A stretch of DNA of 64,000 nucleotides from Candidatus Latescibacterota bacterium (GTDB lineage Bacteria > Latescibacterota > UBA2968 > UBA8231). Location: positions 1,152,001 to 1,216,000 of the forward strand of contig CBDETY010000003.1 in NCBI GenBank assembly GCA_965243025.1. The letters are read 5' to 3'. The notes beneath the pieces are model-generated. The model was not told the DNA's origin and did no database searches. It saw only the letters and a program-made list of their open reading frames with translations. Position numbers and translations under genes: made by a program. The first letter of the stretch is position 1. Every line of letters starts with the position of its first letter. Shown one piece after another: positions 15,669 to 28,744 of this stretch.

Positions 15669-16898
15669 ATGAAAGGGCCGTTTCCACATGGCAAGCAGAC
15701 TGCGGGGGTCTCCATGCTGCTGGCCTCGGCACTCGTCGGTTGCTACACCCTGTCCGGCCGTTCGGACGACTTCGGCAGTGGGGCCGGCCACCTCGATGAA
15801 CGCTCGCTCGGCCAGACGCGCACGGCCGCGGCGAGGGAGGGTCAGGCCGTCGTCCTCCACCTCGAAAGCCCCGAGGCGGTGAATGCCCACCGCGGCGATA
15901 CGGGAGAGACAGGAACAGACGTGATTCCCTATGTCTTCGAGCGCCGGTCGCGCCGAACCCTGCGCATCGGGAGCTGGGCGCGCGCTTCGAGCCGGGTCGA
16001 GCTTGTCGATGCTGCCGGAGCGGTTCTGCTCACCGTCAGCGGGGCCTCACCGTCGGCCTCGGCCGAGGTTCCCCCCGGGCGCTACCGACTCCGCGTGTCC
16101 AAGGGCGAGGGGCGCAGGGGGGTGGGAACGCTGTTCGTTCGGCCCGACACGATGGTGGTCTCCAAGGACTGCCCCGGCTGCAGCCTTTCCGGGGCCGACC
16201 TCAGGAGGGCGCGGCTGGCGGCGGCGAACCTGACCGGGGCTCGCCTGAGAACCGCGGACCTCAGCCATGCGGACCTGACCGGGGCCAGGCTTTCCGGCGC
16301 CGACCTCCAGGGGGCGGTTGCCAACCGGGCGCGCATGTCCGGGGCGAACCTGAGGGAGGGGGATCTTTCCTCGTCCGACGTGATCGCCTGCGACCTGTCC
16401 GGGGCGGATCTCGGAGGGGCCGTTGCCCGCGACGCCAGCTTCGACAGCACGGCCCTGAAGGAGGCCGTCCTCTCCGGTGCCGACCTGACGCGGGCGACCC
16501 TGCGCGGCGTCGTGCTCAGCGGCGCGGACCTGCGCGGGGCCCGTTTCGTGCGCTCCGAGCTCGACGGGGCGGTCCTGAAGTCCGCACACCTGGGAGATTC
16601 CGATTTCGAGGGTGCGCGGCTGGTGGGGGCCGACCTCGGGGAAACCGTAATCGACAAGGTCAACTTCATCGCCGCCGACCTGCGCCGGGCCAACCTGAAG
16701 GGGGCCCGCCTGCGGCGGGTCAAGTTCCAGGGTTCCAGCCTGATCGGCGCAACGTGGACAGACGGGACGGTTTGCGGATACGGATCGCTGGGGCGCTGTA
16801 TTCCGATGCCCCCGGGAATGCTGCTGCCGGGGCTGATCCGGTCCGTGGTCCCGGCGGATTCGGGGGCTGTCGAGGCTCCGGGGAGGTCAGACAAGTGA
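15669..16898 (+). CDS. Pentapeptide-repeat protein, putative lipoprotein
   Basis: CPGCSLSGADL followed by many A(D/N)Lxx repeats, ending ATWTDGTVC; ALVGC lipobox-like motif. Confidence 0.85.
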   Translation: MKGPFPHGKQTAGVSMLLASALVGCYTLSGRSDDFGSGAGHLDERSLGQTRTAAAREGQAVVLHLESPEAVNAHRGDTGETGTDVIPYVFERRSRRTLRIGSWARASSRVELVDAAGAVLLTVSGASPSASAEVPPGRYRLRVSKGEGRRGVGTLFVRPDTMVVSKDCPGCSLSGADLRRARLAAANLTGARLRTADLSHADLTGARLSGADLQGAVANRARMSGANLREGDLSSSDVIACDLSGADLGGAVARDASFDSTALKEAVLSGADLTRATLRGVVLSGADLRGARFVRSELDGAVLKSAHLGDSDFEGARLVGADLGETVIDKVNFIAADLRRANLKGARLRRVKFQGSSLIGATWTDGTVCGYGSLGRCIPMPPGMLLPGLIRSVVPADSGAVEAPGRSDK

Positions 16899-17455
16899 AG
16901 GGAAATGCCGGAAGGATCGCCGCACGCGGGTTTGCCCGCTCTCGCCGGCTGGCCCTGGCGGCCGGGGCAGGCCTGTTTCTGACTGCCGCCGCCGGCGCGG
17001 CTCCGAAATCGCAGTTCACGCTGCCGACGCTGGGCGGCGGGCAGTTCTCACTGGAGGAGGCGCTGAAGAAGGGTCCGGTGGTCCTCGATTTCTGGGCGAC
17101 CTGGTGCAAGCCCTGCATCAAATCCCTGCCGAAGCTGCAGGAGATCGCCGGGGAGTATGGGGAGCGCGGGGTCGGGGTGTACACCGTGAACACCGACGGG
17201 CCGCGCAACCAGCCCAAGGTGCGGCCGTTCATGAAACGCCACCGGCTCGAGCTTCCGGTCCTTCTCGACCACACGAGACAGGTGATGAAGCAGTTTCAGC
17301 TCTCCGTCCTTCCGGCTTCCTTGATCATTTCGACCGAAGGGGCGGTAGTTTACAGGCACGTGGGGTACAAACCAGGGGACGAGACCGGGCTCCGCGACAA
17401 GCTGGCGGAGCTGCTGGGAGCGCAACCCGATTCGACGGAAGGCAGGAGCGAATGA
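16895..17455 (+). CDS. TlpA-family thiol:disulfide oxidoreductase
   Basis: Signal-like N-terminus, LDFWATWCKPC, LP cis-Pro loop; GTG start overlaps the upstream stop (GTGA). Confidence 0.9.
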   Translation: MKGNAGRIAARGFARSRRLALAAGAGLFLTAAAGAAPKSQFTLPTLGGGQFSLEEALKKGPVVLDFWATWCKPCIKSLPKLQEIAGEYGERGVGVYTVNTDGPRNQPKVRPFMKRHRLELPVLLDHTRQVMKQFQLSVLPASLIISTEGAVVYRHVGYKPGDETGLRDKLAELLGAQPDSTEGRSE

Positions 17456-18333
17456 AAGCCAGGATCAGGACTCGATGGCGAAAGGCCGCAGCGGTCGCGT
17501 GCGGTGCATTTCTCGTCGGCGGGCCGGGCGGGGCGGCGGGGCAGGTGGTCGCCGGCGACATCGCCCCCGACTTCGAGCTCGAGACCGTGGACGGACAGCT
17601 CGTCTCGCTGAGCGGCTTTCGCGACGAAAAGGTTGTCTTTCTCAACATCCTGGGGAACACCTGACCGTACTGTATCGCGGGGGCCGCGAATTCCGAAGCG
17701 ATATGGCAGGACTACGGGGGGGACCGCTTCGTCGCCCTCGGCATCGACATCTGGAACGCCAGTCCCGCCAACGTCCGGGCGGTGTGGATCGACGACGGGC
17801 TGGCCACCTATCCGATGCTCGTCAACGGGTCCGACGTCGGCAACCAGTACGGCGTGGGACAGGACTACTACTTCGTGATCGATCACGAGGGGTTCGTACG
17901 CTACCGCTCCGGCCCCGGGCCGCTCGGGGAGCGCTTCGTCGACGGGGAGATCCGCGACGCCATCGAGGCCTCCCTCGAGGCCCTCGCCGATTTTCTGGAA
18001 GAAGAGGAAGAGGTGGAGGAGATAACCACGGAGGTGGCGTCATCGCCGCAGCTTCCGGCCCGGTTCGAGGTGGGGAACGCGTATCCGAATCCCTTCAATT
18101 CCGAAACCACCCTTTCGTTCGCGGTAAGCGCGGCCGGTCTCCTCAACCTGACGCTCTTCGACCTTGGAGGCCGGGTGGTGCGGGACTGGTCCGGGCAGTA
18201 CGAGGCCGGCAGGCACTCCCTGACCTGGGACGGCCTGGACGAGGCCGGCAATCCAATGGCCAGCGGGGTGTACATCGCCTCGGCGCGCCAGGGAAGCCGC
18301 GCGATAACCCGGAAGGTCACCCTCCTGAAGTAG
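17452..18333 (+). CDS. Predicted selenoprotein: secreted AhpC/TSA/TlpA-like redoxin (UxxC) with C-terminal T9SS type-A/FlgD-Ig-like domain
   Basis: ORFs ending at 17664 and starting at 17782 are in one frame, separated only by TGA 17662-17664; read-through gives APDFELETVDG..VSLS.FR..KVVFLNILGNT-U-PYC...FVALGID...YFVIDHEG.VRY; tail YPNPFN...WDG.DE.G...SGVY...KVTLLK. Confidence 0.85.
17670..17706 (+). promoter_or_regulatory. Candidate bacterial SECIS element
   Basis: TCGCGG(17675-80)-GGG-CCGCGA(17684-89) hairpin with a G loop starting after a 16-nt spacer from the TGA; alternative longer stem TATCGC(17673-78)/GCGATA(17698-703). Confidence 0.55.
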
Positions 18334-19296: not shown

Positions 19297-20853
19297 TTAC
19301 AGCACTTTGCTCGTAAGGCGAATCTCCAGCCCTTCGAATCCGAGCACCTCGTAGCAGGTTCCCCCGGTGCAGGCGAGACCGGTGCGCCGTTTGCCGGCGA
19401 ACAGGGTTGCGGTATGCGCCTCGCGGAACAGCCAGCTCGTCCCCAGGGCCCACCACCAGGTCGCGCCCGCCTGCGAGGCCCCGGTTTCAAGCGGGTCGTT
19501 GGACCGCTGCAGCTGCAGCGACCAGGTCCAGGCGGGAAAGCGGCTGACCTCGGCCGCCGCCAGCAGGTTCTCGTAGGGGAAGCGCCTGCTGCCGAAACGG
19601 CGGTCGACGTCCTGGAACTGAAGGTCGGCGGCAAGGGCGTACCGGGAGCCCGCGGACCAGTCCCACCGGGTGCCCGCGGTCACCCGCTTCTCGTTCTCCA
19701 GTATGCGGGTGCGCGCGTAATCGAAGAAGACCTGCCCGTACAGCGCCTCCCCCACCGGGGAATCGAGCTGCATGAAGTACTCGCTCAGGGACTTCGCCTC
19801 CTCGCCGGGACGGGGCCCCCGGCGGGTGGCGAGGTTCCAGGCGGCGATCAGCCCGACCTGCCGCGGCAGGGCCCAGGTCAGCTCCGCCTGAAACCCGGTT
19901 TCGTCGTCGGGCAGCAGGGTGTGCGTCTGCCGGTTCAGGAGGAAGGCTTCGTGCTCCCGGATCAGCGTCGGCGGGTTGTTGATGGCGGGGAAGTTGAAGC
20001 CGTCGTAGTCCTTGAACTCGAGGCTCAGCCCCCAGGCGCCCCCCGTGAAGGTGCTTGAAAGGTAGAGCCCCCGCGCGTGCTCGCGGTCGAGGGAGAACCA
20101 GCTGTCGAGAGCCGGATCGATGCGGGCGTACTCGCCGTACAGGTCGCCGTACCAGTCCGGCAGACCGAGCGCCTCCAGCAGCCGTCCGAGACGGACCCGG
20201 GCATGGGTGGTGGCGCCGCGTTCTTCGCCGTCGAAGTCGAGCACTCCCGTCCCGAACTCGAGGCCGGTCCAGGGGCTGGCCCTGAAAGCCCCCCCGGAAA
20301 CGCGGCCGAGGCGGCGGTCGGGGCCCTTCCTGCCGGGGGCGACCTCGCTGTCCACCGGGCGGCCGGTGAGCAGCAGCACCTCGACGTCTCCCCGGCGGTA
20401 GCGGACCTGGAACCCGTCGAGGTCCTGCGTTATCTGGTAGCGTCTCCGGGAGACGCGGTTTTCGGTGATGACCCCGGGAAGCTCGAAGGCGTGCAGCAGC
20501 AGGCCGCTGCCGACCAGGGTGAGGCAGGTCCCCGCGGTCGCCTCGAAGCCTCCCTGCCGGTAGGAGAGGGAGCGCTGGGCGAGATGGAAGTAGTCGCGTC
20601 CGCTTTCGCTGGAGCGGAAGGCCTCGCTGCGCAGGCTGGCGAGGAATCCCGAGGTTTCCAAACCGAAGTTCAGCTGCTGGTACACGGTGCGCAGATCGCG
20701 CGGCTCGGACCCCGGCAGGTTGCCTAGCTGGTACTCGTGGTGGGCGGTGAGCTGCGGCTGGGAGACGGCGGGGGGCGCTGCCAGCATGCCTGCGAGAAAC
20801 AGACGGGCGGCTCGCCGGCGGGGTGATGTAGCTTTATCTGCTTTCTGCGGCAT
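19297..20853 (-). CDS. Putative outer-membrane beta-barrel protein, DUF6029-like
   Basis: Signal peptide, GSGLLL..FE, EFKDY, NNPPTL..EH, DETGFQAE, amphipathic strands, C-terminal GLACTGGTC...FEGLEIRL. Confidence 0.7.
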   Translation of the reverse strand: MPQKADKATSPRRRAARLFLAGMLAAPPAVSQPQLTAHHEYQLGNLPGSEPRDLRTVYQQLNFGLETSGFLASLRSEAFRSSESGRDYFHLAQRSLSYRQGGFEATAGTCLTLVGSGLLLHAFELPGVITENRVSRRRYQITQDLDGFQVRYRRGDVEVLLLTGRPVDSEVAPGRKGPDRRLGRVSGGAFRASPWTGLEFGTGVLDFDGEERGATTHARVRLGRLLEALGLPDWYGDLYGEYARIDPALDSWFSLDREHARGLYLSSTFTGGAWGLSLEFKDYDGFNFPAINNPPTLIREHEAFLLNRQTHTLLPDDETGFQAELTWALPRQVGLIAAWNLATRRGPRPGEEAKSLSEYFMQLDSPVGEALYGQVFFDYARTRILENEKRVTAGTRWDWSAGSRYALAADLQFQDVDRRFGSRRFPYENLLAAAEVSRFPAWTWSLQLQRSNDPLETGASQAGATWWWALGTSWLFREAHTATLFAGKRRTGLACTGGTCYEVLGFEGLEIRLTSKVL

Positions 20854-20902
20854 CGTAGTTTCTCGACACAGGGAAAAACAAGCGATTCGGCGGTTAGGCT
20901 CA

Positions 20903-21688
20903 ATGGAGCGATCTGTTTTCGAGGGGCTGGACGGCAAGCAGGGGGCAGAGCGGTCGGAGAAACCGCGGACGGCAGGCCTGACCATGGCGGTCGACTGGGG
21001 CATGGGGCTGAACCGGCAAAGAGACCTGCAGGATTCGAGCGGTCCTTACATTGATTTTGCAAAGGTGGCGGTCGGTGTTTCCCGGCTTCTTTCCGGCTCC
21101 ATGCTGCAGGAAAAGATCGACTCCTATCTCGCCGCGGACATAGAGCCTTTTCCGGGGGGGCAGTACCTCGAGTACGCCGAAAGGGAAGGGAAGCTGGAGC
21201 GCTATTTGGAGGCGGTCGCCGAGGCCGGTTACCGCTGGGTGGAGGTCTCCGACAACCTGCTTCCCGCAACAGCGGCCTGGAAGGAAAGGACCATACGCAG
21301 GGCCCGGGAGGAGTTCGGCCTGAACGTCCTCGGCGAGGTCGGCAGGAAGGAGGGCCTCGAGAACTCCATACCCCTGCCCGACAACGCCGGTATATGCCTC
21401 GGAGCCGGGGCCCGGCTCATCCTTCTGGAAGCCGCCGAGCTGCTGGCAGGCGACGCCGCGACGCCGGCAGCAGTCGAGGAGATCGTCGCGGCCGCCGGCC
21501 TGGAGAAGGTGATGTTCGAGCTTCCCGGGCCGTGGATCGAAGGGGTGACCGACACCGACGTCCACCGCCTTCGGCGCGACCTGATCGACCGCTACGGAAC
21601 CGAGGTCAACATCGGCAACGTCGCTCCCGACGACCTGATGTCGCTCGAAACCTACCGCCGCGGACTCGGAGTCAACGCCGGCAGCTGA
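20903..21688 (+). CDS. comA: Phosphosulfolactate synthase (ComA family)
   Basis: KPRTAGLTMAVDWG, YIDFAK, PGG..LE, VEVSD, EVGRK, ILLEA, KVMFE, VNIGNV, LETYRRGL. Confidence 0.88.
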   Translation: MERSVFEGLDGKQGAERSEKPRTAGLTMAVDWGMGLNRQRDLQDSSGPYIDFAKVAVGVSRLLSGSMLQEKIDSYLAADIEPFPGGQYLEYAEREGKLERYLEAVAEAGYRWVEVSDNLLPATAAWKERTIRRAREEFGLNVLGEVGRKEGLENSIPLPDNAGICLGAGARLILLEAAELLAGDAATPAAVEEIVAAAGLEKVMFELPGPWIEGVTDTDVHRLRRDLIDRYGTEVNIGNVAPDDLMSLETYRRGLGVNAGS

Positions 21689-21744
21689 TCTGTCGGCGCA
21701 CTTCGTGACGTTTGTGATTACAAGTTCGCGCCGCGCCTCGAATT

Positions 21745-21768
21745 GCCGTTCGCCCGCCGGCGAACGGC
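21745..21768. terminator. Perfect 10-bp hairpin downstream of comA (possible terminator or processing site)
   Basis: GCCGTTCGCC-CGCC-GGCGAACGGC; no clear U-tract. Confidence 0.3.
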
Positions 21769-21838
21769 CACGGAAATCGGTATAAATGACATTCAGCCCG
21801 ACACTGTACAGGACAGCGGTCCCCGCAGGCCGTGCTCC

Positions 21839-22684
21839 ATGAGGTCGGCCACCGCTTTCGCGCCCGGAAGCATTTCCGGTCTCTTCAAGATCATCGCCGA
21901 CGACGACCCGGAGAAGATGCACTCCCTCGGGCTCAGCTTCACCGTTGCCGAGGGGGCCGCGGTCACCGTTTCGGAAGCCTCGCGCACCGCCGTCACCTTC
22001 AACGGCGAGGAGATCCGCTTCCCGACGGTGGCGACCCTCGCCGGGCGGCTGAGCGACGGCGCTTTCGATATCGCCGTCGAGTCGCCCCTGCCGCTGAGCT
22101 GCGGATTCGGCCTGAGCGGGGCCTCCACCCTCGCTGCGGCTTACGCCATCGACCGCCTCCTCGGCCTTGGTATGGCGGCCGAAGAGCTGGCCCTGCACGC
22201 CCACGTGGCCGAGGTGGAGAACCTGACCGGCCTCGGCGACGTCTGCGCCCAGTACCACGGCGGATGCCTGGTCAAGCTGGCCCCCGGGTCCCCGCTGGTC
22301 GCGCAGCGCCTCGCCGTGGCGGAGGGAGAGCCGATCCACTTCCGGTATTTCGGGCCCATAAGCACCAGGGAGGTGCTGTCCGATCCGCGCCGCGCCGCCG
22401 CGGTCAACCGGGCCGCCGACGCCGCCCTGCGGCAGCTGTCCGGGCTGACCGGCCGCGAACAGGTGCCGGTCTCCGAGTGCGTGCGCGTCTCCAGGAGGTT
22501 CGCCGAAGACAGCGGCCTGATGACCGATCCGCGGGTCGGGGAGACGGTCGCCTCGGTGGGTGCGTCCGGCGGGGAGGCCTCGATGATCATGCTCGGGCAC
22601 GCCGTCTTCAGCACTGTCCCGTTCCCGGGCTCGACCGAGACTTCGCTGTCCCTGGTTCCTGCCAGGGTGCTGGACGGACCATGA
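21839..22684 (+). CDS. pok: Archaeal-type pantoate kinase (GHMP kinase family)
   Basis: AFAPGSISGLF, S.G.SF, PLSCGFGLSGA, AHVAEVENLTGLGDV.AQ..GG, ASMIMLG.AVF. Confidence 0.85.
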   Translation: MRSATAFAPGSISGLFKIIADDDPEKMHSLGLSFTVAEGAAVTVSEASRTAVTFNGEEIRFPTVATLAGRLSDGAFDIAVESPLPLSCGFGLSGASTLAAAYAIDRLLGLGMAAEELALHAHVAEVENLTGLGDVCAQYHGGCLVKLAPGSPLVAQRLAVAEGEPIHFRYFGPISTREVLSDPRRAAAVNRAADAALRQLSGLTGREQVPVSECVRVSRRFAEDSGLMTDPRVGETVASVGASGGEASMIMLGHAVFSTVPFPGSTETSLSLVPARVLDGP

Positions 22685-23412
22685 CCGACGTACCGGAAAC
22701 CCACCCGCGCTACGAATCGCTGCGCCTGCGGGACGCCGTGGTCGCCGGCGTCGAACGCGGGGTGACCTCGGTCCACGGGCTGATCGCCCACGGCCGCGGC
22801 GAGGCCTTCGACTACCTGCTCGGAGAGCGCACCCACGACTTCGCCCATGAGGCGGTCGCCGCCGCAGCGGCCATGCTGGCGTCGGCGCAGCGGCCGGTGG
22901 TGTCGGTCAACGGCAACGCCGCGGCCCTGGCGGCCGACGGGCTGGTGGCGCTGGCCGAGGCCCTCTCCTGCCCCCTGGAGGTCAACCTGTTCCACAAATC
23001 GCGGGAGCGCGAGCGTGCCATCGAGGAGCTGCTGGTCGAAAGCGGGGCGGCCCGGGTGCTGCTTCCCGACCCCGGCACCTTCCTCGAGGGGATCGACTCC
23101 AACAGGCGCTACGTCCACCCCGAGGGGATTCACCGGGCGGACGCGGTTTTCGTGCCGCTCGAGGACGGCGACCGCTGCCGGATTCTGCGCGCCGCCGGCA
23201 AGGAAGTGGTGACTGTCGACCTCAATCCCCTGTCGCGCACGGCGAAGCTGGCCAGCATCTCCATAATCGACAACGTCGTCAGGGCGATGCCCCTGCTGGT
23301 CGACGCGGTGTCGGCGGCGGCCTCCGGCCCGCATGGGAGCCGGCGCCTGCTCGAGGAATATGACAACGGCCGCATCCTGGAGGCGGCGGAGCGATGCATG
23401 AGGAACCGATGA
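22681..23412 (+). CDS. pps: Archaeal-type 4-phosphopantoate--beta-alanine ligase (phosphopantothenate synthetase)
   Basis: HPRYESLRLR, GLIAHGRGEAFDYLLGERT, PVVSVNGN, LEVNLF, VPLEDGDR, VDLNPLSRT, DNVVRA; ATGA overlap with the kinase gene. Confidence 0.92.
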   Translation: MTDVPETHPRYESLRLRDAVVAGVERGVTSVHGLIAHGRGEAFDYLLGERTHDFAHEAVAAAAAMLASAQRPVVSVNGNAAALAADGLVALAEALSCPLEVNLFHKSRERERAIEELLVESGAARVLLPDPGTFLEGIDSNRRYVHPEGIHRADAVFVPLEDGDRCRILRAAGKEVVTVDLNPLSRTAKLASISIIDNVVRAMPLLVDAVSAAASGPHGSRRLLEEYDNGRILEAAERCMRNR

Positions 23413-25823: not shown

Positions 25824-27776
25824 ATGTTATCCGTAGACAACGTAGCCAAGATTTTCGGAGACCAGGTCCTTTTCCGGAACGCGAGCTTCGCCGTGGGCGC
25901 CGGCGAACGCATAGGAGTAGTAGGACCGAACGGCGCCGGCAAGACGACCTTTTTCCGCATGCTCGCCGGTGAACTGCTTGCCGACGAGGGGGAGATCCGG
26001 TCGCCGAAGAACTACAGCGTGGTCCAGCTTCGGCAGGAGTGGCTGCCGCTCCAGGGGGATACCGTGCTCGAGGCGGCGCTGCGGGAGTTCGCTCCCTGGT
26101 TCGAAGCGCGCGCCGGGATGGACCGGATCGAGCGGCAGCTGTCCGAATCCTCTGACGAGAAGCTCGTCGGGCGCTACCGGGAGATCGAGCACCGGTTCAG
26201 CATGCTCGGCGGCCACCAGGTCGAGCAGACGGCGAGGGAGCTGCTCGCCGGCCTCGGCTTCGCTTCCGGTCAGTTCGGCGAGCCCGCGGTGCAGCTCAGC
26301 GGCGGCTGGCGGATCCGCTGCCACCTCGCCGGCCTGCTGCTGCAGGAGGCGGATCTGCTGCTCCTCGACGAGCCGACCAACCACCTCGACATCCGTTCGG
26401 TCAAGTGGTTCGAGGAGTTCCTCGGGCAGTACCGCCAGTCGTTCATGCTGATCAGCCACGACCGCCGGCTGGTGCAGCGTCTCGCCCGCGGCATTCTCGA
26501 GTTCGCGCCTCCGCAGCTCACCCTGTGGCCCGGGTCGCTCCGGCAGTACGAGACCCTCAAGCAGCAGCGTATCGACCAGCTGGAAGCGACGATCGCCAAC
26601 AGGCAGAAGGAGGTGGAACGGCTCGAGGATTTCGCCCGGCGCTTCCGCGCCAAGGCGACGAAAGCGCGCCAGGCCCAGAACCGGCTCAAGACCGCCGGCC
26701 GCTACCAGGAGCAGATCGAGGAGCTGCAGAAGTCGATGCCGGTGATTTCCAGGCGTCCGGCCAGCTTCCGGCTGGAGCTGGAGCGGCGCCTGCCGAGCCG
26801 GGTGCTGGAGTTCGAGAAGGCGGTTTTCGGGTACCGCGCCGACAGGCCGCTGTTCGAGCTGCCGCGTTGCGTCATCGAAGGGGGCAGGAAGATCGGCATC
26901 GTCGGCGTCAACGGCGCCGGCAAGTCGACCTTCCTCAAGTGCTGCGCCGGAGAGCTGCCGCTGCTTTCGGGCAGCAGGCAGCGGAGCGACCAGGTCGCCA
27001 CCGGCTTCTTCGCCCAGCACCGCATGGAGGAGCTGCCCCTGCCCAGCGTCGCCCTCGATTATCTCGCCGAGCAGAGCTTCGGCAACCCTCCGGCGCGGGT
27101 GCGCTCCCTCGCCGCCAGCCTCGGGCTCTCGGGAGGGGATCTCGAGAAGCGGATCGAAGTGCTGTCTGGCGGTGAGAAGGCCCGCGTCAGTCTGGCCCGC
27201 ATCCTGTTGTCGAGGCCGGGCATGCTGCTGCTCGACGAGCCGACGAACCACCTCGACCTCGAAGCCTGCGACGCTCTCAAGCGCGGACTGGCCACGTACG
27301 AGGGAACCTTGCTGATCGTTTCCCACAACCGCGACTTCCTCGATTCCCTCGTCGACTCGATTCTCGAGATCCGGCCGGGAGAGGCGGTCCTGCATCACGG
27401 CAACTACAGCGAGTGGCTCGAGCGCCTCGAAGCCCGGGAGCAGGATGGGCTCCAGATGGCAGATCAGCCGAAGAAGCCGGCGGGGAAGGGGAGGAAGACG
27501 GCGGAGATGAAACGGCGCGAGGCCGAGCAGCGGCAGCAGCGCTCGAACCGTCTGAAGAAGATCCGCGGGGAGGTGTACGCGGCGGAGGCGAGGCTCAGAA
27601 AGTGCACCGCCGAGCTCGCCGATCTCGACCGCAGGCTGTGCCTGCCGGAAAGCCCCCGGGAGCCTTTGTTTCCCGAGTGGCTGAGGCGGCACGCCGAGCT
27701 GACCGCAGACCTTCCCCGACACGAGCAGCGCTGGCTGGAGGCGTCGGAGGAGCTCGAGCGCTTCGAGGGTCAGTAA
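25824..27776 (+). CDS. ABC-F family ATP-binding protein
   Basis: Two NBDs (GPNGAGKTT, LSGGW, LLLDEPTNHLD; GVNGAGKST, LSGGE, DEPTNHLD), linker KATKARQAQ, C-terminal coiled coil, no TM segments. Confidence 0.95.
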   Translation: MLSVDNVAKIFGDQVLFRNASFAVGAGERIGVVGPNGAGKTTFFRMLAGELLADEGEIRSPKNYSVVQLRQEWLPLQGDTVLEAALREFAPWFEARAGMDRIERQLSESSDEKLVGRYREIEHRFSMLGGHQVEQTARELLAGLGFASGQFGEPAVQLSGGWRIRCHLAGLLLQEADLLLLDEPTNHLDIRSVKWFEEFLGQYRQSFMLISHDRRLVQRLARGILEFAPPQLTLWPGSLRQYETLKQQRIDQLEATIANRQKEVERLEDFARRFRAKATKARQAQNRLKTAGRYQEQIEELQKSMPVISRRPASFRLELERRLPSRVLEFEKAVFGYRADRPLFELPRCVIEGGRKIGIVGVNGAGKSTFLKCCAGELPLLSGSRQRSDQVATGFFAQHRMEELPLPSVALDYLAEQSFGNPPARVRSLAASLGLSGGDLEKRIEVLSGGEKARVSLARILLSRPGMLLLDEPTNHLDLEACDALKRGLATYEGTLLIVSHNRDFLDSLVDSILEIRPGEAVLHHGNYSEWLERLEAREQDGLQMADQPKKPAGKGRKTAEMKRREAEQRQQRSNRLKKIRGEVYAAEARLRKCTAELADLDRRLCLPESPREPLFPEWLRRHAELTADLPRHEQRWLEASEELERFEGQ

Positions 27777-27894
27777 GGTTCGGAGTGTCTCCCCGGGGAG
27801 GCAGCGAGTCACCGATCGGCCACGGTGGGACCGCCGCATTCCTCCCGCCGGCAGCCGGGGGAACCGGAAAAAGGCGCGGCACGATTCTTGCGGA

Positions 27895-27923
27895 TTGCCT
27901 ACCGCCGAGCCCCGGGCTATACT
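27895..27923 (+). promoter_or_regulatory. Putative sigma70 promoter for the repeat-protein gene
   Basis: TTGCCT(27895-900)-17 nt-TATACT(27918-23), 17 nt upstream of GTG 27941. Confidence 0.5.
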
Positions 27924-27940
27924 CGCGAAAGGGATTTGCC

Positions 27941-28744
27941 GTGTCCGATGATCTCACAACCCGCGACGTGTTCCAGCAGGTCGACAGCCGTCTCACCCGC
28001 GTCGAGGAGGATTTGCGCCAGCTGAGGGCCGATACGACCGCCGGATTCGCCCGCCTCGATCTGCGGATCGACCAGTTTCAGCTGGGGCTCACCAAGCGCA
28101 TGGATCAGTGGCAGCAGGGCCTCAGCCAACGCATGGACGAGGGTCAACGGAGTCTTTCCCAGCGCATGAACGAGGGGGACCAGGGGCTTATCCAGCGTAT
28201 GGACGAGGGTCACCAGGAGCTGGCGCAACGCATGGACGAGGGCCAACGGAGTCTTACCCAGCGCATGGACCAGGGCGACCAGGGGCTTATCCAGCGTATG
28301 GACGAGGGTCAACGGAGTCTTACCCAGCGCATGGACGAGGGTCACCAGGAGCTTGTGCAACGCATGGACGAGGGCCAACGGAGTCTTACCCAGCGCATGG
28401 ACCAGGGCGACCAGGGGCTTATCCAGCGTATGGACGAGGGTCAACGGAGTCTTACCCAGCGCATGGACCAGGGCGACCAGGGGCTTATCCAGCGTATGGA
28501 CGAGGGTCAACGGAGTCTTACCCAGCGCATGGATGAGGGTCACCAGGAGCTGGCGCAACGCATGGACGAGGGTCAACGGAGTCTTACCCAGCGCATGGAC
28601 CAGGGCGACCAGGTACTTGTGCAACGCATGGACCAGGGCCAACGCGGGCTTTCCCAACGCATGGATCAGCTGCAGTGGCGGATGGTCGGTCTCTTCGTCG
28701 TCACCTGGGTCACGGTGGTCGGATCCATCTGGCTGAAATCCTGA
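27941..28744 (+). CDS. Membrane-anchored coiled-coil protein with 11-aa tandem repeats (DUF1640/CCDC90- or Bdr-like architecture)
   Basis: Short head MSDDLTTRDVFQQVDSRL, repeats RM(D/N)(E/Q)Gxxx(L)xQ, C-terminal TM WRMVGLFVVTWVTVVGSIWLKS. Confidence 0.8.
   Translation: MSDDLTTRDVFQQVDSRLTRVEEDLRQLRADTTAGFARLDLRIDQFQLGLTKRMDQWQQGLSQRMDEGQRSLSQRMNEGDQGLIQRMDEGHQELAQRMDEGQRSLTQRMDQGDQGLIQRMDEGQRSLTQRMDEGHQELVQRMDEGQRSLTQRMDQGDQGLIQRMDEGQRSLTQRMDQGDQGLIQRMDEGQRSLTQRMDEGHQELAQRMDEGQRSLTQRMDQGDQVLVQRMDQGQRGLSQRMDQLQWRMVGLFVVTWVTVVGSIWLKS
28097..28657 (+). repeat. 33-bp tandem repeat, 17 units (coding VNTR)
   Basis: Units such as CGCATGGACGAGGGTCAACGGAGTCTTACCCAG at exact 33-bp period from 28097 to 28657; three recurring variants. 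Confidence 0.95.

Follow-up and report, generated by a model that had tools for sequence, protein, structure and literature searches.

In the window, that is, the whole 64,000-nucleotide stretch of Latescibacterota DNA analysed here, a gene that appears in the open reading frame list as two pieces almost certainly encodes a real selenoprotein, its UGA at 17662 being recoded as selenocysteine (Sec). The predicted product is a secreted redoxin with a UxxC active site and a C-terminal sorting tail. Comparative evidence makes it very probable that this redoxin is functionally linked to two neighbours, a TlpA-like periplasmic reductase and a DUF6029 outer-membrane beta-barrel, within a conserved redox module of the cell envelope. 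For the mechanism of this module, the preferred reading of the sequences is a thiol-disulfide electron relay across the outer membrane, to which we assign a probability of about one half.

The first-pass annotation had taken the locus for one gene split at a TGA codon; the two listed pieces, 17104–17664 and 17782–18333, indeed lie in the same frame, and translation from ATG 17452 to TAG 18333 gives a single open frame with one internal TGA (LNILGNT-U-PYC). The features of the locus are collected in Table 1. At the N-terminus, the best 9-residue hydropathy is 2.5, and the basic start and hydrophobic core are, read by eye, kept in orthologues. The redoxin carries UxxC in a thioredoxin fold, as the disulfide reductases TlpA, ResA and DsbE carry CxxC. 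Scanned alone, the portion downstream of the TGA yields the tail match and no redoxin domain; a further model of the tail, PF18962, stays under its cut-off (22.4 bits, cut-off 27). None of the NCBIfam selenoprotein models attains its cut-off on the 293-aa protein, and single-sequence structure prediction of it reached a pLDDT of 41, too low to use.

Table 1. Features of the selenoprotein locus, in window coordinates
Feature	Position	Strand	Score or basis
TlpA/ResA-like periplasmic reductase; WCKPC at 17102–17116, signal-peptide-like start, probable GTG start at 16895	16895..17455	+	
Predicted selenoprotein gene, 293 aa: signal peptide, UxxC redoxin, acidic linker, T9SS-A/FlgD-like tail	17452..18333	+	
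Probable Sec-pathway signal peptide: basic start, hydrophobic core, small residues then Gln	17452..17541	+	judged by eye
Thioredoxin-fold redoxin domain, residues 34–152	17551..17907	+	AhpC-TSA 48.9 bits (cut-off 26); Redoxin 42.2 bits (cut-off 26.6)
In-frame TGA, predicted Sec71, position 1 of U-P-Y-C; Cys74 at 17671–17673	17662..17664	+	
Putative bSECIS hairpin TCGCGG-GGG-CCGCGA: 6-bp stem, G loop at 17681–17683	17675..17689	+	
C-terminal sorting domain, matches at residues 211–289	18064..18330	+	TIGR04183 33.1 bits (cut-off 23); FlgD_ig 37.2 bits (cut-off 27)
DUF6029 predicted outer-membrane beta-barrel, 518 aa, single copy in genome	19297..20853	-	PF19494 48.4 bits (cut-off 27)
Cys495-x4-Cys500, near-invariant, on a beta-hairpin in the last long loop of the barrel	19354..19371	-	

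The genome (6.8 Mb, 96% complete, 6% contamination) has all of selA, selB, selC and selD: the three protein genes match above their cut-offs, a tRNA-Sec is present, and selD carries an in-frame TGA of its own. Searching 168 genomes from the phylum gave 82 redoxin matches, spread over 59 genomes; 80 of the matches have one internal TGA. The codon stands on query column 71 in 31 of 32 alignments from 30 loci, the remaining one having Cys, and it is kept at this column across four families. The earlier proposal that the TGA takes the place of the first Cys of a CxxC motif is thus borne out by homologues with either TGA or Cys there; the neighbouring TlpA directly upstream reads DFWATWCKPC. Cys orthologues of full length, with the same tail and in the same cassette, are 31% identical end to end; with a Cys orthologue as query, CxxC was found in 146 of 150 representatives and a similar tail in 59. 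In the Cys homologues, the column of the resolving Cys74 is invariant. A tree of the redoxins (77 rows, 146 columns, midpoint root) needs four Sec/Cys changes, counted without direction. A pattern scan of a collection of genome contigs gave distant TlpA-like proteins only, at 25–59% over partial matches. One paralogue in another genome (G099, loci L040/L133) has a TAG shortly before the TGA and, from its sequence, is probably a broken copy; the same genome holds other copies.

Independent assemblies also read TGA at 17662. A contig from another study (X5, record 21) has identical letters over 17560–17793, TGA included, and a second one, likewise from another study (X7, record 25), extends across the locus and differs at 14 positions, none of those listed falling on the TGA codon; sponge metagenomes are among the holders of the sequence. 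In RNA run X20, the TGA is covered by a low-depth contig of a related strain only, by which transcription is not shown. As the first-pass annotation had foreseen, such proteins are mis-annotated as fragments: the best 32 matches in protein databases are all pieces of 162–219 aa covering 37–74% of the query, and each of the 13 inspected begins downstream of the TGA. By database label, the closest tail fragment comes from Gemmatimonadetes and the relatives of the neighbouring barrel come from Latescibacterota.

Recoding of the UGA by SelB bound to the downstream hairpin is likewise indicated by comparison. The hairpin lies exactly where it had been claimed, with the claimed G loop and 16-nt spacer. 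The published bSECIS model calls for a loop of 3–9 nt, a stem of 4–16 bp, G within the first two loop positions, a spacing of 16–37 nt and a minimum free energy of at most -7.5 kcal/mol (PMC13188914); the 6-bp stem, GGG loop and 16-nt spacer agree with it, at -8.8 kcal/mol in a 39-nt window. This part of the fold check stood, and the other part did not: against shuffles, stability is nothing unusual for GC-rich DNA (z = +0.94, -0.42 and -0.54 in three windows), and a 59-nt window folds preferentially into a different structure. The support for the hairpin, as a sequence feature, is comparative and not thermodynamic. The 6.8-Mb genome contains its 15-mer a single time, and orthologues of only ~45% protein identity keep it nearly unchanged, which argues for more than chance. 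At 77 distinct active sites, a stem-loop (perfect stem of at least 5 bp, G-containing loop centred 15–21 nt downstream) occupies the bSECIS position in 47 of 61 TGA sites versus 2 of 16 Cys sites and 2.6% of 7931 control windows drawn from the same genes, and at least three different stem sequences supply it. At 27 sites chosen for the present hairpin type, the Ala codons of the downstream arm, which played no part in the choice, are GCC in 26 and GCG in all 27, flanking codons being free to vary. Such patterns indicate that selection acts on the hairpin. A genome-wide search for the same hairpin sequence gave no second gene and the selD hairpin differs, so that there is no genome-wide sequence consensus. 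Two paralogues of the Cys form (L038:121-552 and L155:4573-5004) have kept the hairpin, which would fit a recent change from Sec to Cys.

Export beyond the periplasm is probable. With TIGR04183 above its cut-off, the tail counts as a type A sorting domain of T9SS cargo, and it matches about 100 other places in the genome. SprA, PorV and two PorU genes score above their cut-offs; the search for GldM/PorM and GldN/PorN, which divergent versions could escape, came up empty both here, in a genome 96% complete, and in a sister genome, yet did match in two Bacteroidota genomes taken as positive controls. Export would therefore be T9SS-like rather than canonical. As to the earlier claim of export to the cell surface, SprA, PorV and PorU are present, the canonical machinery is incomplete by this search, and the surface location itself is a prediction. 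The tails at the 61 Sec sites, in classes assigned by our own patterns with the EF-hand class backed by a domain scan, are of the present type in 37 cases, EF-hand/dockerin-like in 19 and short SWG..K in three, with none detected in two; being exchangeable among orthologues, the tail is supported as an address label. The selenoprotein would pass the inner membrane by Sec and the outer membrane via the SprA/PorV machinery, and PorU would anchor it outside or release it. The architecture had been called unusual; since signal peptide, redoxin and T9SS-A tail are common together in Cys form, this applies to the Sec alone. Two orthologues (L029, L030) have ~350 extra residues between redoxin and tail, which, from a motif, we take to resemble a beta-lactamase-fold serine hydrolase, a possible substrate clue. 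In family f4, Sec-redoxins (L146:8874, L231:7351, L232, L234) are fused to extensions of 690–1630 residues and unlinked from the barrel.

The stop codon of TlpA overlaps the ATG of the selenoprotein gene, and the DUF6029 gene, a partner that the first-pass annotation had missed, lies ~1 kb downstream in convergent orientation; the phosphatase gene between them is found there in the own genus only. DUF6029 is present in 101 of the 168 phylum genomes, nearly always in one copy. TlpA adjoins the barrel in 52 of 53 loci. In 48 of the 52 own-family genomes that have the barrel, a redoxin match lies within 5 kb of it, with the gene order varying; two of the other four cases fall at the end of a contig. 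Separation of the redoxin from the TlpA-barrel pair is seen in two own-family genomes and is the usual state in family f4. Barrel and redoxin occur together in 99 genomes, neither occurs in 61 and one only in eight, so that 160 of 168 genomes are concordant, as counted with a profile of Cys homologues at an E-value threshold of 1e-25 picked after viewing the data, over related and hence non-independent genomes of which some with neither are incomplete. Sister species of eight genera lack both jointly. In a sample around a Bacteroidota genome, 31 of 121 genomes have DUF6029. Among 30 loci of this sample (one further locus without an intact barrel frame being left out), TlpA lies upstream in 24, and an exported CxxC protein follows downstream within 1.5 kb in 24, the other six having no CxxC neighbour in that interval; six of these 24 proteins belong to the redoxin family, and the remaining 18 are of another type, whose single scanned member is Omp28. 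DsbD is present in the genome of the window.

Several further observations concern these loci and their surroundings. In a Zixibacteria locus (L193:357-1406, minus strand), TlpA and DUF6029 are immediately followed by an Omp28 protein that has both UxxC and a T9SS tail; no solved structure was matched by the sequence of this protein. The Omp28-related Paraprevotella protein 00502 was considered as a functional clue and rejected: the relevant passages of its report mention neither disulfide nor thioredoxin, and the bead-bound protein acts alone (PMC9477747). A pentapeptide-repeat gene (15669–16898, plus strand), whose stop overlaps the probable TlpA start, adjoins the cassette in the own genus only. 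Beyond the barrel, a ComA-like gene, a GHMP kinase and a phosphopantothenate synthetase (PF02006) at 20900–23412 (plus strand) are presumably an archaeal-type coenzyme A route in a bacterium, and an open reading frame at 27413–28744 (plus strand) has many near-identical, coiled-coil-like QRMDEG-type repeats. Elsewhere in the genome, ARAGORN reports an unusually long tRNA-Gly(tcc) of 91 nt (G000:C3:306604-306694) and tRNA-Val(gac) of 94 nt (5363388-5363481), each with a normal-length isoacceptor at another place.

A structural model of the barrel from a 116-row alignment (pLDDT 92.6) is all beta, with ~24 strands by our own reading and no plug domain. At the sequence level, the DUF6029 alignment matched no solved structure. 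Conservation among the cysteines of the barrel is confined to Cys495 and Cys500 (79 and 80 of 83 rows, with truncated frames among the misses); the model places this pair on a two-strand hairpin in the loop that precedes the last strand, which by usual barrel topology would face outward. Disulfides in the outer loops of barrels are often structural. A second barrel bears on this point. Two genomes of family f2 have Sec-redoxins and no DUF6029 match; each of them encodes, between the redoxins and a TlpA-like gene that itself has UxxC, a PF13557 barrel of 302 aa with CCRIQ as its last residues. Used as a query, this barrel gave 22 metagenome loci, the four closest at 52–63% identity: redoxins lie upstream in three of these four, and three reach the barrel end, all with a Cys-Cys tail, one of them apparently the same record as a genome already in the set (G039). 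No such tail occurs in the 18 distant loci or on two similar PF13557 barrels elsewhere in the genome of the window. A relay would lead one to expect a Cys pair in two unrelated barrels that each stand between one periplasmic and one exported thioredoxin, an arrangement not expected of a purely structural disulfide; the evidence for the second barrel comes from a handful of related contigs. Loci in which a PF13557 (SphA-like) barrel with a Cys-Cys tail adjoins Sec-redoxins and a UxxC-bearing TlpA-like gene include L140:11352-12838, L226:3228-4853, L241 and L243, the last having two such barrels in tandem.

The relay could operate in the following manner: DsbD would reduce periplasmic TlpA, which in turn would reduce Cys495-Cys500 on the barrel loop. 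This loop, mobile in the open lumen, may then re-reduce Sec71-Cys74 of the exported redoxin. The final targets of the redoxin would be surface, host or substrate proteins, whose disulfides or other forms of oxidised sulfur it would reduce, with Sec possibly serving as the more reactive nucleophile outside the cell.

The barrel may instead be an usher-like pore for export, docking or assembly of the redox protein, with a structural Cys pair and a TlpA that only keeps the Sec or Cys of the cargo reduced in the periplasm before export. The ushers FimD (Z 18.7, rmsd 4.8, 363 aligned) and PapC (Z 17.6, rmsd 5.3, 365 aligned) are the top fold matches of the model, recognisable GldM/GldN are missing from the genome, and PorA gets to the cell surface without T9SS (PMC7712824). 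We nevertheless regard such a pore as unlikely: at 9–12% identity, the fold likeness is that of large barrels in general, and the cargo already has a widespread sorting tail. Moreover, the same barrel family serves partners with other tails or lipoprotein-like starts, and the unrelated smaller barrel with terminal Cys-Cys stands in its place in the f2 genomes.

Somewhat less credible is a channel for small thiols, disulfides or reduced substrate pieces, in which the thioredoxins on either side communicate through a diffusible mediator or the Cys pair acts as a redox gate. The wide, plug-less barrel with a thioredoxin-fold protein on each side would suit this role, and the only paper found to name DUF6029 speculates on polysaccharide export from an HHpred likeness to Wzi-type barrels (PMC9603273). 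Around the loci examined, which came from selected queries, thiol proteins are the constant neighbours instead, with no constant transporter or polysaccharide gene among them, and a mediator would need no invariant Cys pair.

The chemistry of the redoxin itself leads to another possibility, an exported peroxidase for the detoxification of peroxide, selenium or metals at the surface of a sponge symbiont, with any relay merely recycling it. Sec favours peroxide reduction, AhpC-TSA is the top Pfam match, and the peroxiredoxin AhpE is among the weak sequence matches. The cis-Pro of TlpA is absent, its column being held by Asp138; in the redoxin alignment, Asp occupies this column in 38 of 77 rows and Pro is outside the five commonest residues. 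As an atypical redoxin, the protein lacks the cis-Pro and WCxxC signature of TlpA/ResA/DsbE (ResA model 25.2 bits, cut-off 170), which leaves room for peroxidase-like chemistry. However, it has UxxC in place of the peroxidatic TxxC of peroxiredoxins (BCP model 17.9 bits, cut-off 140), the column of the resolving Cys74 is invariant in the Cys homologues, and the partner of the barrel is exchangeable for Omp28-type CxxC proteins; a peroxidase is accordingly rated as distinctly improbable. A true stop or an assembly error, leaving a pseudogene or two small genes, is effectively refuted: the unremarkable hairpin stability and the TAG-broken relative in G099 would fit it, but the TGA column is conserved in four families, independent runs agree, the hairpin appears to be under selection, and the Sec machinery is complete.

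The components of the module have known counterparts. UxxC selenoproteins are catalogued as 'Prx-like thiol:disulfide oxidoreductase' (PF00578) and 'Redoxin family' (PF08534) (PMC13188914), and share with the protein of the window the Pfam families, the UxxC and the in-frame bSECIS; the latter differs by its signal peptide, C-terminal sorting tail and barrel partner. The main text of this catalogue contains no mention of secret-, T9SS, FlgD, Omp28, dockerin or Latesci-. HBP35 of Porphyromonas gingivalis, found at the cell surface, has a thioredoxin motif as well as a C-terminal sorting domain; in vitro it reduces the disulfides of insulin, it binds hemin, and the physiological role of its thioredoxin domain is stated to be unknown (PMC2907840). 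It resembles the selenoprotein in combining motif and sorting domain and differs in having Cys instead of Sec and in binding hemin; it is not among the PDB sequence matches of the selenoprotein. Another T9SS-exported Cys thioredoxin is noted in a 2026 preprint (PMC13404670). UxxC redoxins and T9SS-exported thioredoxins are thus each known and the Cys architecture is common; Sec in the secreted form is the unusual part. No description of the three-gene module was found in the literature searched (supplementary selenoprotein tables, which could list the family, being outside its scope), nor any of the cassette under selenoprotein, T9SS, DUF6029, Omp28, HBP35, PorA, Latescibacter or outer-membrane disulfide transfer. 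The family adds a large and systematically mis-annotated group of secreted selenoproteins from an uncultured, sponge-associated lineage.

For the relay, two systems offer themselves for comparison. In the periplasmic reducing pathway from DsbD/CcdA to TlpA, ResA and CcmG, Cys pairs hand electrons through a membrane, and the acceptor has a thioredoxin fold. The proposed relay likewise uses Cys pairs and a thioredoxin-fold acceptor, and DsbD and TlpA are present here; it differs in that the proposed step crosses the outer membrane via a beta-barrel. The MtrAB porin-cytochrome conduit is a large barrel for outward electron transfer. Its structure (6r2q) matches the DUF6029 model with Z 15.3 and rmsd 4.6 over 358 aligned residues, a generic fold likeness, and its lumen holds a multiheme cytochrome where the relay would have a Cys pair. 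Taken together, and with confidence just short of even, TlpA, DUF6029 and an exported thioredoxin-fold protein may form a heme-free, cysteine-based electron conduit of the outer membrane, a counterpart of DsbD, widespread in the FCB group, that evolved from unrelated barrels on two or more occasions and ends here in a surface selenoenzyme. DUF6029 thereby gains a function to test in culturable Bacteroidota with the all-Cys version. The cassette is also a testable candidate for what keeps surface thioredoxins such as HBP35 reduced beyond the outer membrane.
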